Origin: a virus
Reading direction: 5' to 3' (one strand)
UHGV virus genome: UHGV-0152227
DNA: 43,955 nucleotides
The translations under genes were made by a program, and so were the position numbers. Shown in pieces: positions 7,903-37,303 of this stretch. The notes below the pieces were generated by a model. That model searched no databases and was not told the origin of the DNA. It saw nothing but the letters and a program-made list of their open reading frames with translations. Position 1 is the first letter of the stretch. Every line of letters begins with the position of its first letter.

Positions 7903-8160
7903 ATGCAGCAGTATCACTATCCACTGGAAGACGGATTTACCGAAAGGATTCACACGCCGGGAGGCGTCAGATCACTGGTGGAGGGATCGCACTTGATGAA
8001 ATTACTCCGGGATCTCGATAAGGATGGATTTAATGTCGATGGCCCACTTGCCGAACTGACTGCACTGATTAACTACGTCACCAGCTCACAGATGTCTATG
8101 CAGGATCTGCAAACACATCTCGACTATTGTGCCGAACAATTACGAAAACAAACCAGATAA
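7903..8160 (+). CDS. 85-aa stand-alone homologue of the antirepressor C-terminal domain
   Basis: GGAGA RBS 7 nt before the ATG at 7903. By hand alignment it is about 40 percent identical to the shared C-terminus of the 8476 and 41902 proteins (IH.P.GV..L.E.S.LM.LL..L..DG..V.G..AELT...Y...D.QTH..Y). Confidence 0.7.
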   Translation: MQQYHYPLEDGFTERIHTPGGVRSLVEGSHLMKLLRDLDKDGFNVDGPLAELTALINYVTSSQMSMQDLQTHLDYCAEQLRKQTR

Positions 8161-8191
8161 GGTTTGCAATTACCAAGTGGAGTGCTTATAT

Positions 8192-8238
8192 TTACCTTTG
8201 CGGTAAATTTACATCGCACTCCTCTTGTGCCATAGTAA
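8192..8238 (+). promoter_or_regulatory. operator plus promoter of the antirepressor-1 leader
   Basis: Perfect dyad TTACC TTTGC GGTAA (8192-8206), then TTTACA (8208-8213), 17-bp spacer, CATAGT (8231-8236). Confidence 0.5.
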
Positions 8239-8296
8239 TCGGGTACTGGCAAAATCCAGTGCCGGGATTGGCGTCCCGAGTTACTAAGTGGCGCAT

Positions 8297-8320
8297 ACCA
8301 CGCCAGACGTGGTTTTTTTA
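8297..8320 (+). terminator. rho-independent terminator/attenuator inside the antirepressor-1 leader
   Basis: Stem ACCACG (8297-8302) / CGTGGT (8308-8313), loop CCAGA, then a T6 run. Two more hairpins precede it (ACTGG..CCAGT and CGGGA..TCCCG). Confidence 0.7.
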
Positions 8321-8344
8321 TGCGTTAAGCACAGCTATATCCGA

Positions 8345-8420
8345 ATTATGGTGGGCTGGGCAGGGGTCCGAAAGGACGCCGGTACCACTTAGGCCGGTAC
8401 GCCAACCTTGTCCAGTTCAC
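8345..8420 (+). ncRNA. candidate c4-like antisense RNA 1 (boundaries approximate)
   Basis: ATGGTGG (8348-8354) is complementary to CCACCAT (8471-8477, includes the ant1 ATG). CCACTTAG (8385-8392) is complementary to CTAAGTGG (8457-8464, overlaps the SD). A closing helix pairs 8355-8362 with 8409-8416 (6 WC + 2 GU). No plausible ORF. Confidence 0.4.
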
Positions 8421-8475
8421 CACCAGTAATTGGCGTTGCGGTGGTGATTAAAATCACTAAGTGGAGATAACCACC

Positions 8476-9186
8476 ATGGCTAATGCTCAAACTGCCATCT
8501 TCAAATTTGAATCTGTTAACCCTATCCGTTCCATCATTATCGATGGCCAACCATGGTTTGTAGCCCAAGACGTTTGTAGTGCGCTGCGTATCCAAAACGT
8601 CACCCAAGCACTTGAAAAACTGGATGATGATGAAAGGTCTATGTTCAACATAGGGCATGAACATCGTGCAATTTTTGACAGCCGAGTAAAAGAGATCAAC
8701 ATCATCTCCGAGTCAGGCCTCTACACACTGATCCTCCGCTGCCGCGACGCAGTGACACCAGGCACTATCCCCTACCGCTTTCGTAAATGGGTTACAGGTG
8801 AGGTTCTTCCTCAGATCCGCCGCACCGGAAGTTACATTAAAAACTCGCTCCCGCAGGAAGAACGCATAAAGATGGTTGCCGACCAGGTTGCAAACGCCAC
8901 AGCATCAGCAGTGATGCAGGCAATGAAGATAGAGAACAAAACCTACAGCGCCCCACTGAAGCCCGGCTACCGTAGCCTGATTCATTCGCCGTCTGGTGTT
9001 CTCGGCCTGACGGAGAACTCACTGCTGATGAATCTGCTGAACCAGTTACAGGAAGACGGGCACGACGTATCGGGCGCGGCGGCGGAGCTGACCACCATGT
9101 TCTGCTACATCGTCGGTGTGAGCAAATGCCTGCGTGATATCCAGACGCACGCGGAGTACATCAACGACAAGGCTGGGTTCTTCTGA
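8476..9186 (+). CDS. antirepressor 1 (BRO-N N-terminal domain + shared C-terminal domain)
   Basis: BRO-N signature (FESVNPIRSIIIDGQPWFVAQDVCSALRIQN...SESGLYTLILR). GGAG RBS 9 nt before the ATG at 8476. Confidence 0.8.
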   Translation: MANAQTAIFKFESVNPIRSIIIDGQPWFVAQDVCSALRIQNVTQALEKLDDDERSMFNIGHEHRAIFDSRVKEINIISESGLYTLILRCRDAVTPGTIPYRFRKWVTGEVLPQIRRTGSYIKNSLPQEERIKMVADQVANATASAVMQAMKIENKTYSAPLKPGYRSLIHSPSGVLGLTENSLLMNLLNQLQEDGHDVSGAAAELTTMFCYIVGVSKCLRDIQTHAEYINDKAGFF

Positions 9187-9210
9187 CGGGCGGCGGCACA
9201 GGGATGTGCC
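8944..9210 (+). repeat. 267-bp direct repeat, copy 1 (3' third of antirepressor 1 plus downstream hairpin)
   Basis: About 97 percent identical to 42378-42646. About 7 base differences were counted by eye in the coding part, and all are synonymous. Confidence 0.9.
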
Positions 9211-9230
9211 TTTAAATAATTCTGTACAGA

Positions 9231-9273
9231 TTGCAGACTGTGGGTGAATAGCGTACTATTACCTCAAGGGTAA
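9231..9273 (+). promoter_or_regulatory. promoter plus operator of the toxin-like pair
   Basis: TTGCAG (9231-9236), 17-bp spacer, TACTAT (9254-9259). Perfect dyad TTACC TCAAG GGTAA at 9259-9273, abutting the -10. Confidence 0.55.
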
Positions 9274-9333: not shown

Positions 9334-9513
9334 ATGCGAAACGAAAAATTGCAGATGCGTAGAGCGCAAGCTGCCGCAAGACGTTCTTTCAATGGAAGCG
9401 TAGAGTACGTAAAAGTTACTATGACAAAAGATCACGCAAGTCGCGTATCCCGCGCTTTCTTTGATTCTCGTAACAATAAGGAAAATTATGAGTTCGTCTG
9501 CGTCGCAGAATGA
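9334..9513 (+). CDS. 59-aa basic protein, candidate antitoxin/regulator (below the ORF-track size cut-off)
   Basis: ATG at 9334 with a GAGGT RBS 6 nt upstream. MRNEKLQMRRAQAAARRSFNGSVEYVKVTMTKDHASRVSRAFFDSRNNKENYEFVCVAE. Its 3' end overlaps the next gene start by 26 nt. Confidence 0.45.
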   Translation: MRNEKLQMRRAQAAARRSFNGSVEYVKVTMTKDHASRVSRAFFDSRNNKENYEFVCVAE

Positions 9514-10033
9514 TAAAAATCAAATTGTCAGATATAAGGGTCGAGTATTGCATACGCAAAATTTCTCGGCCCTTTGTGCATCTGATCTTGAGCTGAAGAA
9601 AGTATCTGATGCCTTTACCCAGTATTGGAAAACGGGATACCATCCATCTCTTGGTAAAGATGCTGCATTTGCTCGTCCGACAGAAATGCTTAAACTAAAT
9701 GTCAGGCATACTCATGTCGATAACCAAGACTATATTCCAGAAGATAGTGATAAAAAACACACTGGTAAAAAATCATCTTGGGATGCATGGAAAAATATAG
9801 CGTCTGTGCAAGTAAAATGCATACCAACAAGTGATTGCTTTTTAGTTTATTCGGTAAATCACAATCGTGATGCGCTGGTTATGTTTTTTGTTGACGCAGA
9901 TGCCCACAACATAACTGAGCAAGAAGAGTTTAAAGAGGCAGCAATCACTATCAGTTATCAATTCTTTCAGAAAACAAAAACAGAACCAATGCCTTTAGAA
10001 GAAGATCTTTTTTCTGATAAATGGAAGGAATAA
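9488..10033 (+). CDS. YafO-like toxin-family protein (tentative), 181 aa
   Basis: AAGGA RBS 6 nt before the ATG at 9488. By remembered alignment to E. coli YafO: SLGKDAAFARP..LNVRHTHV matches IFGRDALYDD..ERVAHIHL, and PTSDCFLVYSV...ALVMFFVDADAH matches RTNDEAHLVYC...AWLLIAILKPEPH. Confidence 0.5.
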   Translation: MSSSASQNDKNQIVRYKGRVLHTQNFSALCASDLELKKVSDAFTQYWKTGYHPSLGKDAAFARPTEMLKLNVRHTHVDNQDYIPEDSDKKHTGKKSSWDAWKNIASVQVKCIPTSDCFLVYSVNHNRDALVMFFVDADAHNITEQEEFKEAAITISYQFFQKTKTEPMPLEEDLFSDKWKE

Positions 10034-27047: not shown

Positions 27048-27124
27048 GTGGCATTAGCTCAGTTGGACAGAGCAACCGCCTTCTAAGCGGTTGGTCGCAG
27101 GTTCGAATCCTGCATGCCACGCCA
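27048..27124 (+). tRNA. tRNA-Arg (anticodon UCU, reads AGA), CCA encoded
   Basis: A full cloverleaf folded by hand: acceptor GTGGCAT/ATGCCAC, D stem GCTC/GAGC, anticodon stem ACCGC/GCGGT with loop CT-TCT-AA, T arm GCAGG-TTCGAAT-CCTGC, discriminator G, then CCA. Confidence 0.92.
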
Positions 27125-36596: not shown

Positions 36597-36663
36597 ATAT
36601 TCACCCATAAGGTAACAAAAATCAAGGATAGTTACCTATGAGGTGCATTTACCTGTTGGGTAA
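36597..36663. promoter_or_regulatory. immunity operator cluster (3 dyads) with the leftward cro promoter
   Basis: Dyads TCACC CATAA GGTAA (36601-36615), TTACC TATGA GGTGC (36632-36646) and TTACC TGTTG GGTAA (36649-36663). Minus-strand promoter: TTGATT (36620-36625), 17-bp spacer, GAATAT (36597-36602), overlapping the first dyad. Confidence 0.65.
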
Positions 36664-36718: not shown

Positions 36719-37303
36719 ATGAAAAGTATCCAGGACGTCCGCAGGCAAAATCTCAACGACTTGATCGACCGTGAATTCAATGGTGTTCAGACGCGGATGG
36801 CAGAAAAACTTGGAACTCAGGCAAATCTGGTAAACCGCTGGGCTCTTGGCAAGAAGGTTATCGGCGACCAGGTTGCACGAAAAATTGAAGCTGCCGCCAA
36901 TAAACCCCGTAACTGGCTTGATATCGATCGCTCGCTTTCTCAGGAAGGTTTTCAGCCTGTCGGCCCGAGCGATATAGGTCAGCTGGCGGCTCACAACCTG
37001 GAACGCTGGATGAGCGAAAGCCGCGACCTTTCAACGCAGGGAAAACTACACCGCGCATCCGGCGTCGCCCAGGTGACAATCAGCCGCCTGTTAAACAATG
37101 AGGTCAGCGTTTCCATTTCCACCCTGGAGAATGTTGCATCCGCATTCGGGCGTCACGGCTATGAATTACTGATTCACCCGCACGACCCTGCGACCATCAA
37201 CTATGATCGCTCGCGCTACGCATTGTTACCCGAAACCGAGAAAGCAAAGATCGAAAGTTACATTGAATTTGTCATCAACCAGAACGAAAAAAACAAACAA
37301 TAA
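36719..37303 (+). CDS. prophage repressor with two tandem HTH_XRE domains and no S24 peptidase domain
   Basis: HTH 1 is QTRMAEKLGTQANLVNRWALGKK...PRNWLD. HTH 2 is QGKLHRASGVAQVTISRLLNNEVSVSISTLENVASAFG. No Ser/Lys autocleavage module was recognisable. The RBS is weak or absent. Confidence 0.75.
   Translation: MKSIQDVRRQNLNDLIDREFNGVQTRMAEKLGTQANLVNRWALGKKVIGDQVARKIEAAANKPRNWLDIDRSLSQEGFQPVGPSDIGQLAAHNLERWMSESRDLSTQGKLHRASGVAQVTISRLLNNEVSVSISTLENVASAFGRHGYELLIHPHDPATINYDRSRYALLPETEKAKIESYIEFVINQNEKNKQ

Follow-up and report, generated by a model that had tools for sequence, protein, structure and literature searches.

The locus examined here raises the question of what a small stand-alone copy of a protein domain does beside two larger antirepressors which end in the same domain. 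The window, a stretch of 43,955 nucleotides of viral DNA, is recognized by its sequence as an epsilon15/phiV10-like (Uetakevirus) prophage with an antirepression switch of the SPC32H type. The trio of Ant-domain proteins is a modular prophage switch of an essentially known kind, because the small protein is the counterpart, in an E. coli prophage, of Ant from the Salmonella phage SPC32H, an antirepressor induced by DNA damage whose properties and crystal structure are known, and the large pair carries a fused, older paralogue. What is newly seen is the homology between the small Ant and the C-domain of the large proteins, the control of the three members by separate inputs, and what is probably the operator motif of the repressor Rep. 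The features of the system are collected in Table 1.

Table 1. Genes, RNAs and candidate regulatory sites of the antirepressor system in the window.
Feature	Position	Strand	Remarks
Operator-like palindrome TTACCTTTCAGGTGA, TTACC-N5-GGTAA family	7812..7826		followed after about 40 nt by the LexA box
LexA (SOS) box TACTGTATAAATATACAGTT	7864..7883		18/20 to consensus, sole site in the window
Small antirepressor gene ant, 85 aa, SPC32H Ant orthologue	7903..8160	+	88% identity, PDB 5D50_E, PHROG 450
Perfect TTACC-N5-GGTAA palindrome	8192..8206		abuts the -35 of the isrK-type promoter
Promoter-like site TTTACA-17-CATAGT, TG-extended	8208..8236	+	spaced for a transcript beginning at the isrK 5' end
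isrK-type leader RNA	8243..8319	+	Rfam RF01394, 63.5 bits vs gathering 50
C4-type antisense RNA (P1 c4/P4 CI class)	8344..8427	+	Rfam RF01695, 66 bits vs gathering 45, full model
Second putative C4 target TTGGCGT	8430..8436	+	complementarity to ACGCCAA
Putative C4 target CTAAGTGG	8457..8464	+	complementarity to the C4 loop; overlaps the Shine-Dalgarno of the BRO-N gene
BRO-N + Ant-like C-domain antirepressor, 236 aa	8476..9186	+	Pfam Bro-N; C-domain aa 157-236, nt 8944-9186
Three operator-like palindromes, cluster between cro-like gene and rep	36601..36663		equivalent layout in SPC32H
Rep, 194-aa non-cleavable repressor, presumed Ant-domain target	36719..37303	+	PDB 5D50_A, 5D4Z
Strong promoter-like site TTGACA-18-TATATT for the ORF6N module	41656..41685	+	without Rep-operator-like palindrome
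sRNA-Xcc1-type (C4-like) RNA	41771..41860	+	Rfam RF02221, 64.2 bits vs gathering 53
ORF6N + Ant-like C-domain antirepressor, 239 aa	41902..42621	+	Pfam ORF6N; C-domain aa 160-239, nt 42379-42621

In BLASTP, the 85-aa product aligns without gaps with the C-terminal ~75 residues of the BRO-N protein (31 of 74 positions identical, 42%; E 9e-16), and the figure applies equally to the ORF6N protein. A sequence-only reading of the window had placed the three proteins in one domain family with about 40 percent identity counted by hand, and both the grouping and the estimate were borne out. The motifs which it had named (IH.P.GV, LM.LL, DG..V.G..AELT and D.QTH..Y) are all invariant columns of the three-way alignment. 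It had also seen correctly that the large proteins share their C-terminus, of which the last 80 residues (aa 157-236 in the BRO-N protein, aa 160-239 in the ORF6N protein) are identical, and its two N-terminal assignments were confirmed with Pfam (Bro-N, PF02498, 71.5 bits against a gathering score of 25.6, E 1e-19; ORF6N, PF10543, 69.6 bits against 27.8, E 3e-19). The profile and structure comparison of the C-domains which it had proposed revealed significant similarity to SPC32H Ant in both sequence and fold. The C-domains of the BRO-N and ORF6N proteins match chain E of PDB 5D50 with the E-values 1e-13 and 5e-14, respectively, and an AF2 model (pLDDT 76.5) has 5D50_G/H Ant as its top Foldseek matches in PDB (probability 1.00, TM 0.61-0.73). 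At full length, the ORF6N protein corresponds to PHROG 1760 'anti-repressor' (E 1e-91). The shared domain has no family in Pfam or NCBIfam; DUF724, at 17.6 bits, is under its cut-off and was rejected.

A word-indexed homologue search with the small protein revealed close stand-alone relatives only, and an exhaustive profile search was needed for the fusions. The small and the large domains constitute separate, anciently diverged clades, which are 31-51% identical and show systematic differences in the long C-terminal helix. Their similarity is not raised within a locus (39-43%). An origin of the trio by recent local duplication was rejected, since the small and large domains belong to old separate clades. 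Within the trio, the two large C-domains alone are recently homogenised or shuffled: their DNA is 97% identical, and all 7 differences are synonymous (0 non-synonymous).

The 85-aa protein is 88% identical to SPC32H_020 'ant' in tblastn. A PDB search with it at E<=0.01 gave SPC32H Ant as the sole match (5D50 chain E, 'Anti-repressor protein'; phmmer E 4e-47, residues 2-84), and the tailspike gene followed by ant is a gene order shared with SPC32H. At 95-99% identity, the gene was found in about 10% of the complete E. coli genomes (529 of 5,426). It is labelled 'hypothetical protein' almost everywhere, and it is often called from a wrong 126-aa start which engulfs its own LexA box. This annotation, the shortness of the ORF and the lack of a Pfam or NCBIfam family would agree with a decayed, untranslated remnant of the 3' end of a duplicated antirepressor. 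However, a GGAG Shine-Dalgarno is found 8 nt before the ATG, and both the Shine-Dalgarno and the start codon are conserved. The codon differences between ant and its SPC32H orthologue, 34 synonymous and 10 non-synonymous, indicate strong purifying selection; the ORF is kept at high identity in hundreds of E. coli genomes; and the orthologue was purified and crystallised (5D50). The remnant is already refuted by the start signals, codon differences, conservation and crystallised orthologue, and its probability is close to nil. The sequence-only reading had named a lack of translation of the mini-ORF as a point which would overturn it, and the Shine-Dalgarno, the purifying selection and the crystallised orthologue speak for translation.

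Of the two roles suggested there for the mini-protein, the first, a minimal antirepressor, holds: the protein is orthologous to Ant of SPC32H, which was solved in complex with its repressor (PDB 5D50). The accompanying remark that no function had been described does not stand for either kind of protein. The small Ant of SPC32H and its system with Rep have been described (Kim & Ryu 2013 J Virol; Kim et al. 2016 PNAS; PDB 5D50, 5D4Z), and a BRO-N form of the large protein, identical from ~aa 74, was tested in phage ZX5. As summarised in later papers, Ant of SPC32H forms a tetramer which attaches to the C-terminal domain of Rep and takes the Rep tetramer apart; this Rep domain serves both for tetramerisation and for binding Ant (PMC9986798), and Ant is made once LexA has been cleaved (PMC7380047).

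The LexA box of the window has 2 mismatches to the 20-nt consensus, while 0 such sites are expected by chance. It is found 20 nt upstream of the ant start codon, aligns with the box of SPC32H, and is kept upstream of ant in SPC32H, phiV10, TL-2011b and Salmonella prophage loci. A point mutation of the LexA box is said to make phage SPC32N constitutively lytic. For the promoter under LexA control, no -35 and -10 hexamers could be assigned with confidence, and the promoter scan gave only TAGACA-17-GATATT further upstream. Because both Ant and Rep match those of SPC32H and a conserved LexA box lies upstream, the mini-protein is, on the analogy of SPC32H, an SOS-induced antirepressor.

The repressor matches 5D50 chain A (E 4e-42) and 5D4Z (E 4e-20). 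Like its homologue in SPC32H, it includes two HTH regions and the C-terminal tetramerisation/Ant-binding domain, and no S24 peptidase domain was found with Pfam. It is 100% identical to the Rep proteins of ZX5 and phiV10, while it is 42% identical to SPC32H Rep at full length and about 48% in the last 44 residues (manual count). With Rep only 42% identical to its SPC32H counterpart and Ant 88%, the conservation of their interface is an assumption. SPC32H also differs in lacking large Ant-domain proteins, of which the window has two, and the isrK/C4 module.

The TTACC-N5-GGTAA motif is found at 14 sites in the window, against 0.71 expected, and is probably the Rep operator motif. Besides the palindromes listed in Table 1, its sites include 37361 and 37423. 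SPC32H has operator-like palindromes of this family at the same places. The palindrome at 7812-7826 is found at the same position in SPC32H and in seven of the eight species loci, and forms a conserved island in the promoter alignment. The mini-gene had been credited by the sequence-only reading with its own operator-controlled promoter; this palindrome agrees with that statement, which is incomplete in that the dominant element is the LexA box. Neither the LexA box nor the C4-type antisense RNAs, the elements which define the control of each member, appeared in that reading.

Between ant and the BRO-N gene, a further promoter-like site (8164-8192) lies upstream of the isrK-type promoter, and its -10 end is overlapped by the perfect palindrome. 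A palindrome ~51 nt before the isrK 5' end is also found in phiV10, TL-2011b and ZX5, and in loci of Salmonella, Klebsiella, Citrobacter, Superficieibacter and Scandinavium. The possible tandem promoters with a master-repressor operator resemble P1 immI with its Op51/P51b arrangement. The isrK-type RNA ends in an intrinsic terminator, a stem at 8297-8313 followed by a T-run. In the C4-type RNA, the loop CCACTTAG (8385-8392) is complementary to 8284-8291 upstream and to 8457-8464 downstream, and the single-stranded ACGCCAA (8399-8405) is complementary to 8268-8274 (wider site 8268-8276) and to 8430-8436. These pairing sites were derived from a scan for exact 7-mer complementarity; RNAduplex on the whole leaders produced meaningless long-range pairings and was dropped in favor of the scan. 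The layout of ant, isrK, C4 and a large antirepressor gene recurs in E. coli, Salmonella, Klebsiella, Citrobacter, Superficieibacter, Scandinavium and Kluyvera.

The ORF6N antirepressor gene adjoins the integrase gene. The loop CTTTCGA (41826-41832) of the C4-like RNA is complementary to 41711-41717 in the leader of this gene and, at its Shine-Dalgarno, to 41884-41890. The 7-mer scan revealed no cross-complementarity between the RNA modules of the BRO-N and ORF6N genes. The ORF6N module shows no isrK match in Rfam, and a P4-like terminator was not confirmed in this leader, which folds weakly and no better than shuffled sequences (z 0.47). The family of the 239-aa protein is found in E. coli, Salmonella, Citrobacter and Klebsiella. 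Among complete RefSeq E. coli genomes, none matches at least 80% of 41650-42650, which covers the ORF6N gene and its leader; a 98%-identical protein is present in draft assemblies (P0181).

The Ant-like paralogue is combined with five or more kinds of N-domain and is limited to Rep-encoding phages: the domain of the large proteins was detected in 34 of 50,697 phage records, and a Rep homologue in all 34. One and the same C-domain allele occurs in fusions with BRO-N, ORF6N, AntA and P22_AR_N; for the domain family as a whole, Phage_pRha is a further partner. The N-domains are freely swapped, and the C-domain allele tracks the phage lineage. The ORF6N N-domain is also found in lambdoid prophages with another C-domain. 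This distribution bears on the possibility that the C-domain of the large proteins only oligomerises, while the activity, be it antirepression or another one such as DNA binding or host takeover, resides in the BRO-N or ORF6N N-domains and Rep is not necessarily involved. Such proteins are usually annotated by their BRO-N, ORF6N, AntA, Rha or P22_AR_N domains, and the Ant domain is certainly able to oligomerise, because SPC32H Ant is a tetramer. That possibility is nevertheless improbable, as the fused domain is confined to phages with Rep, its allele follows the lineage while the N-domains are exchanged, and, in SPC32H, the stand-alone domain suffices for Rep binding (5D50). Further evidence against it comes from phage ZX5, whose Rep is identical and whose ORF4 acts on the lysis-lysogeny decision.

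The phage vB_EcoP_ZX5 is a close system in which such a protein was assayed. Its small ant, like its Rep, is 100% identical to that of the window, and isrK and C4 are found upstream of ORF4, an 'anti-repressor'. Over its whole length the BRO-N protein shares 81% identity with ORF4, and from about aa 74 to the end the two do not differ. In contrast to the window, ZX5 has no third, ORF6N-type copy. With ORF4 overexpressed, the titre of lysogens fell from 1e9 to 1e6 (Li et al. 2022, PMC9782041). The protein was overexpressed as a GST fusion of the whole protein, with its domains together. The paper says nothing about the small ant, LexA or antisense RNAs, nor does it point out that the ORF4 C-terminus is homologous to SPC32H Ant (PMC9782041).

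The large antirepressors could alternatively serve as weapons in cross-talk or anti-immunity, aimed mainly at the repressors of other Uetakevirus-type prophages, resident or incoming, and not at their own Rep. Such a role is known for P22 Ant and for the trans-acting antirepressors of Gifsy and Fels-2 (PMC3121763, PMC7380047), and weapons of this sort are typically controlled by an antisense-RNA 'second immunity'. A different specificity could also underlie the systematic differences from the small Ant; with the small and large domains 31-51% identical and different in the C-terminal helix, targets or binding modes could therefore differ. On the other hand, Rep is 98.5-100% and the large C-domain 97-100% identical among the E. 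coli group members, and because both are nearly invariant there, their own Rep type is the most available target. Moreover, ZX5 ORF4 affects ZX5 itself. Such a trans-directed role is considered rather unlikely, and an action on their own Rep is the preferred reading of the large proteins.

The other role suggested by the sequence-only reading was a competitor or buffer: the mini-protein would set a threshold by forming mixed tetramers with the large antirepressors or by competing for Rep. The common fold and oligomeric assembly would allow this, and the small and large genes are adjacent in many prophages. However, SPC32H, epsilon15 and three of the eight species-representative loci have the small gene without a large partner, and its product functions there as an antirepressor; because SPC32H and those three loci have only the small gene, the small Ant works without the large ones. 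The separate ancient clades with their unraised within-locus similarity, and the different signals, LexA for the small gene and antisense RNA for the large ones, are also against a buffer, which remains without support and is very improbable.

The predicted control of the large genes resembles P1/P7 immI (c4 - icd - ant) and the P4 immunity region (seqA - CI RNA - seqC), whose RNAs belong to the same Rfam family, C4, as the RNA at 8344-8427. In these systems, too, the RNA derives from the transcript of its target, and its loops are complementary to sites upstream and at the ribosome-binding site of the antirepressor gene. Unlike in P1, the C-domain of the window's antirepressors is unrelated to P1 Ant, and the E. 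coli version has no icd-like gene, while the Salmonella and Klebsiella versions have a 167-aa overlapping ORF. The isrK - orf45 - anrP region of Gifsy-1 (Hershko-Shalev et al. 2016, PMC4825925) likewise has an isrK-family leader with a read-through terminator; downstream come a processed RNA and a gene for an antirepressor-like protein, the translation of which is RNA-controlled. It differs in phage type and repressor family, and the window has neither an equivalent of orf45 coupled to the antirepressor gene nor an adjacent AntQ. P22 immI (Ant, Arc, Mnt and sar RNA) is similar as a second, SOS-independent antirepressor module, and the related TL-2011b has a third Ant-domain protein with P22_AR_N, sar RNA and an Arc-like gene; the window, however, lacks Arc, Mnt and sar, and the Ant-like C-domain replaces P22_AR_C. 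Tum of phage 186 and GfoA/GfhA of Gifsy follow the same logic as the small gene, in that a LexA box controls a small antirepressor gene and the repressor is non-cleavable (Shearwin 1998; Lemire 2011, PMC3121763). No similarity to these families was found in the PDB search at E<=0.01, in which SPC32H Ant was the sole match.

It is likely that the small gene encodes a LexA-controlled Ant directed against Rep, and that the large proteins are SOS-independent antirepressors which share its domain and are silenced by C4-type RNAs. In the lysogen, host LexA would occupy the SOS box, and its removal upon DNA damage would allow the 85-aa Ant to be made. As in the solved complex of SPC32H, the Ant tetramer would bind the C-terminal tetramerisation domain of Rep and split the Rep tetramer into dimers, and the lytic genes would be turned on because Rep dimers no longer hold the operators. 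In the large proteins, the C-domain would serve as the oligomerisation and Rep-targeting module, and these proteins would be SOS-independent 'anti-immunity' antirepressors on interchangeable N-domains of the KilA-N type (BRO-N and ORF6N). By analogy with P1 immI, P4 CI and Gifsy-1 isrK-anrP, each large gene would be silenced by its own C4-type RNA, which pairs with the ribosome-binding site. The trio would thus represent one repressor-inactivating domain placed under three separate control inputs.

A wider scheme can be offered tentatively, as one that may well prove wrong in part or whole. The Ant fold may be a portable 'repressor-disassembly' domain, which Uetakevirus-type prophages would use in the form of two ancient paralogues with a common target, Rep. 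One would be a free tetramer made available by the cleavage of LexA, and the other would consist of KilA-N-type fusions of at least five kinds gated by mutually non-cross-reacting C4-type RNAs. Rep would bind TTACC-N5-GGTAA beside the promoter regions of the small ant and the BRO-N gene, giving three independent inputs for inactivation, two of them with built-in feedback. Such a three-input, two-paralogue architecture is not described for SPC32H or ZX5.

The current understanding of prophage switches is not overturned by this analysis, whose value lies mostly in annotation and in the framing of experiments. The large BRO-N and ORF6N proteins ending in an Ant domain give a testable hypothesis for the repressor-recognising part of modular antirepressors, and the presence of several antirepressors in one prophage may be explained by their different controls. 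Recognizing the small gene amounts to identifying the SOS-induction gene of a widespread prophage group, which includes O157 typing phages and the EHEC-associated TL-2011b.

The 85-aa product of the small ant gene is an anti-repressor of the type already characterised in Salmonella phage SPC32H. It is 88% identical (tblastn) to SPC32H_020, annotated as "ant: anti-repressor protein", and a PDB search pairs it, with the e-value 4e-47, with chain E ("Anti-repressor protein") of 5D50, an entry entitled [quoted passage not shown]. In PHROGs it falls into phrog_450, a stand-alone family of 88 residues labelled as of unknown function. The sequence-only reading had suggested a minimal antirepressor, which these matches bear out; its statement that no function had been described was mistaken, since SPC32H Ant is already known as an antirepressor. 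As the SPC32H work is summarised in PMC7380047, LexA self-cleavage leads to the production of Ant, which inhibits the repressor through protein-protein contact, and as summarised in PMC9986798, the C-terminal domain of SPC32H Rep both tetramerises Rep and binds Ant. The presumed partner in the window, the 194-aa Rep, matches 5D50 chain A ("Repressor"; e-value 4e-42) and 5D4Z (4e-20), and contains two HTH regions but lacks an S24 peptidase domain. In contrast to the 88% of Ant, the identity of Rep to its SPC32H counterpart is only 42% over the full length, and about 48% in the C-terminal part that binds Ant. A small conserved interface patch or different recombination histories of the ant/tailspike and immunity regions could account for this contrast.

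The small ant has a GGAG Shine-Dalgarno sequence 8 nt before its ATG, and its codon differences from SPC32H are 34 synonymous and 10 non-synonymous; thus, the gene is translated and evolves under selection. Its start is often called at ATG 7780 instead, giving 126-127 aa, as in the cluster representative of 833 sequences. This long form (7780-8160) encloses the LexA box and an operator-like palindrome within the ORF, and is almost certainly a mis-annotation because the crystallised orthologue has 86 aa.

Features of the antirepressor and immunity regions in the window
Feature	Position	Strand	Remarks
Tailspike/tail-fibre gene	4936-7707	minus	neighbour of small ant
LexA (SOS) box	7864-7883		TACTGTATAAATATACAGTT; 20 nt upstream of small-ant ATG
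Small ant	7903-8160		85 aa
isrK-family RNA	8243-8319		Rfam, above gathering score; intrinsic terminator at end
C4 antisense RNA	8344-8427		Rfam, above gathering score
BRO-N gene	8476-9186		236 aa
YafO-family toxin-like gene	9461-10033		Pfam YafO_toxin, e-value 1e-5; TL-2011b gp44 annotated likewise
rep	36719-37303		194 aa
sRNA-Xcc1-type RNA	41771-41860		upstream of ORF6N gene; Rfam, above gathering score
ORF6N gene	41902-42621		239 aa
TTACC-N5-GGTAA sites	7812, 8192, 9259, 10509, 26711, 29838, 29856, 34300, 34362, 36264
TTACC-N5-GGTAA sites flanking rep	36601, 36631, 36649; 37361, 37423

The ORF listing contains the small ant and both large genes where the sequence-only reading had placed them, and the domain shared among the three products is confirmed far beyond chance. 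Pfam recognizes Bro-N and ORF6N at the N-termini of the two large proteins, and neither Pfam nor NCBIfam has a family for the shared C-domain. The last 80 residues of the large proteins are identical, as had been noticed; the underlying DNA (97% identity) differs at seven positions, each of them synonymous. The 85-aa product, described as a diverged copy with about 40% identity, gives a gapless alignment with residues 155-228 of the BRO-N protein, with 31 of 74 residues identical (42%; e-value 9e-16), and the motifs picked out by hand are invariant columns in the three-way alignment. Between the large genes, about 270 nt (42379-42650 versus 8944-9215) are 97% identical and flanked by unrelated sequence on either side; the similarity starts with the shared domain's first codon and ends about 25 nt beyond the stop. 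This tract looks like the product of a recent recombination or domain transplantation. Among the complete RefSeq E. coli genomes, none has a match that covers 80% or more of the segment with the ORF6N gene and its leader (41650-42650). In HEMP4, the same C-domain lies beside int with a different N-part.

Profile and structure comparison, the check proposed along with the shared domain, shows that the large C-domains match SPC32H Ant in both sequence and predicted fold. They match 5D50 chain E directly with e-values 1e-13 and 5e-14. The AlphaFold model of the large C-domain (mean pLDDT 76.5) is all-helical with a long C-terminal helix, and its only significant matches in PDB are the 5D50 Ant chains (probability 1.00, TM 0.61-0.73). 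The family is small, since only 64 of 1.84 billion representatives searched exhaustively with a profile had e-values of 1e-3 or lower. Its members are either stand-alone (about 82-95 aa) or carry the domain C-terminally behind AntA, Bro-N, Phage_pRha, ORF6N or, in TL-2011b gp42, P22_AR_N. The domain is present in 34 of 50,697 phage records, and all 34 encode a Rep homologue. The Salmonella members SPC32H, epsilon15 and SPN1S have the small gene only; in members from E. coli, Enterobacter and Klebsiella, one or two fused copies accompany it. TL-2011b and HEMP4 have three copies each; thus, the trio is not peculiar to the window. In phiV10 (3874-4553 of the phiV10 locus), the annotation splits the BRO-N antirepressor gene into two ORFs, p23 (194 aa) and p22 (29 aa), and the C-domain match falls in two pieces; its Ant-like domain appears disrupted.

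Small and large domains were compared among seven loci with both forms, plus SPC32H with the small form only. Identities are 61-100% between small domains, 52-81% between large domains, and 31-51% between small and large domains, with no rise within a locus (39-43%). Judged from these identities, the two are old paralogues whose lineages have been kept separately, which argues for distinct, non-redundant roles and disfavors the small protein being a recent duplication or a decayed remnant.

The LexA box upstream of the small ant agrees with the E. coli SOS-box consensus at 18 of 20 positions and is unique in the 44 kb, with 0 expected in shuffles. It aligns with the counterpart boxes of SPC32H, phiV10 and TL-2011b. 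Boxes are also found in Salmonella, Citrobacter, Pseudocitrobacter, Scandinavium and Buttiauxella loci, and ATGT-N8-ACAG variants occupy the position in Klebsiella, Kluyvera and Superficieibacter loci.

The palindrome TTACC-N5-GGTAA, with one mismatch allowed, occurs at 14 sites in the window against 0.71 expected, an excess of about 20-fold. It is probably the Rep operator, because clusters flank rep and the layout on both sides of rep is the same in SPC32H; it is probably also the operator meant when the sequence-only reading assigned the small gene an operator-controlled promoter. One palindrome lies about 40 nt upstream of the small-ant LexA box in the window, SPC32H and seven of eight species loci. 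Another abuts the -35 of the isrK-type promoter in the window and overlaps the end of an upstream promoter-like site; nine other loci have a copy similarly spaced from isrK on its upstream side. The palindromes next to the small-ant and isrK promoters, and one upstream of the yafO-like operon, are single copies, similar to the scattered C1 operators of P1. The ORF6N module contains no TTACC-N5-GGTAA site.

Both large genes are preceded by antisense RNA modules; for the BRO-N gene, isrK and C4 lie immediately before it. Within isrK, the sequence CTAAGTGG (8284-8291) is complementary to the C4 loop CCACTTAG, and this target is repeated at 8457-8464, overlapping the Shine-Dalgarno sequence of the BRO-N gene. 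A second C4 segment, ACGCCAA, is complementary to TTGGCGT at 8268-8274 and 8430-8436. In the ORF6N module, the loop CTTTCGA is complementary to TCGAAAG at 41711-41717 and at 41884-41890, the latter overlapping the AAGGA Shine-Dalgarno sequence. A 7-mer scan revealed zero cross-complementarity between the two modules. The P1 c4-ant system has the same arrangement, and that of Gifsy-1 isrK-orf45-anrP is similar. P4 seqA-CI-seqC, as set out in PMC4825925, likewise has this arrangement.

The order small ant, isrK, C4, large ant is shared by phiV10, TL-2011b and ZX5, as well as by Salmonella, Klebsiella, Citrobacter werkmanii, Superficieibacter, Scandinavium and Kluyvera prophages. The third copy of TL-2011b has a P22-type sar RNA and an Arc-like gene in place of the isrK/C4 control. 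This copy, gp42 (6562-7746 of the TL-2011b locus), joins P22_AR_N to a C-domain of the Uetakevirus Ant type, which replaces P22_AR_C, and with the adjoining sar match and Arc-like gene it is a hybrid of P22 immI control and an SPC32H-type effector domain. In Salmonella and Klebsiella versions (L006/L007 5498-6001, L008 1922-2428), the C4 RNA is followed by a 167-168-aa ORF without Pfam match and then by the ORF6N-Ant gene, whose start the ORF overlaps by 8 nt. The position of this ORF recalls the P1 icd-ant translational coupling; the E. coli window has no such ORF.

Five N-domains (two different ORF6N alleles, Bro-N, AntA and P22_AR_N) are followed by one E. coli-type C-domain allele in identical or nearly identical form. 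Identity of the large C-domain is 97-100% within E. coli, 78% for Tyrion, about 70% for Salmonella and 54% for Klebsiella. Thus, the C-domain tracks the phage and repressor type while N-domains are shuffled, as expected if the C-domain is the repressor-targeting module, a role that these comparisons suggest for it. The ORF6N N-domain of the window shows about 81% DNA identity to ORF6N genes that lambdoid prophages carry in their nin region, but the C-domain of those genes is a different one. In the nin region of the E. coli 2013C-4282 lambdoid prophage (L004 2501-4067), adjoining ORF6N and BRO-family proteins have one common C-domain, unrelated to Ant; different N-domains on the same phage-specific C-domain is therefore a pattern that recurs in another phage type. 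The closest experimental result is from phage ZX5, whose ORF4 shares 81% identity with the window BRO-N protein and does not differ from it after about residue 74; the Rep proteins of the two are 100% identical. When ZX5 ORF4 was overexpressed, the lysogen titre fell from 1e9 to 1e6 and transcription of the repressor dropped by 75%; the ZX5 paper makes no mention of the small ant or LexA (PMC9782041).

The window is an integrated Uetakevirus-type prophage. The segment 7600-9400 matches phiV10, TL-2011b, ZX5 and HEMP4, more distantly epsilon15-type Salmonella phages, and prophages of about 10% of complete E. coli genomes. The neighbours of this segment are the tailspike gene, a block of virion genes and an immunity region of the rep/cro-like kind; the right end carries a tyrosine integrase. 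The attP core published for phiV10, epsilon15 and ZX5, ATTGAGTGGGAATGATT, is present in a single copy at 1874-1890; thus, bases 1-1873 are presumably host flank, and the second copy presumably lies past the integrase end of the window. A tRNA-Arg(UCU) gene (27048-27124, plus strand) lies among the virion genes but is encoded on the other strand from those around it. Directly downstream of the BRO-N gene and a perfect operator-like palindrome (9259-9273), a 59-aa ORF precedes the YafO-like gene; the pair (9334-10033) may be a Rep-controlled toxin-antitoxin or abortive-infection moron.

With moderate confidence, the large proteins can be read as SOS-independent, antisense-RNA-gated antirepressors that would reach the same Rep via a paralogous Ant domain. 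The locus belongs to known kinds of system. Three aspects are, as far as could be found, undescribed: the homology between the small and large antirepressor domains, the wide range over which N-domains are shuffled, and the wiring to three inputs.
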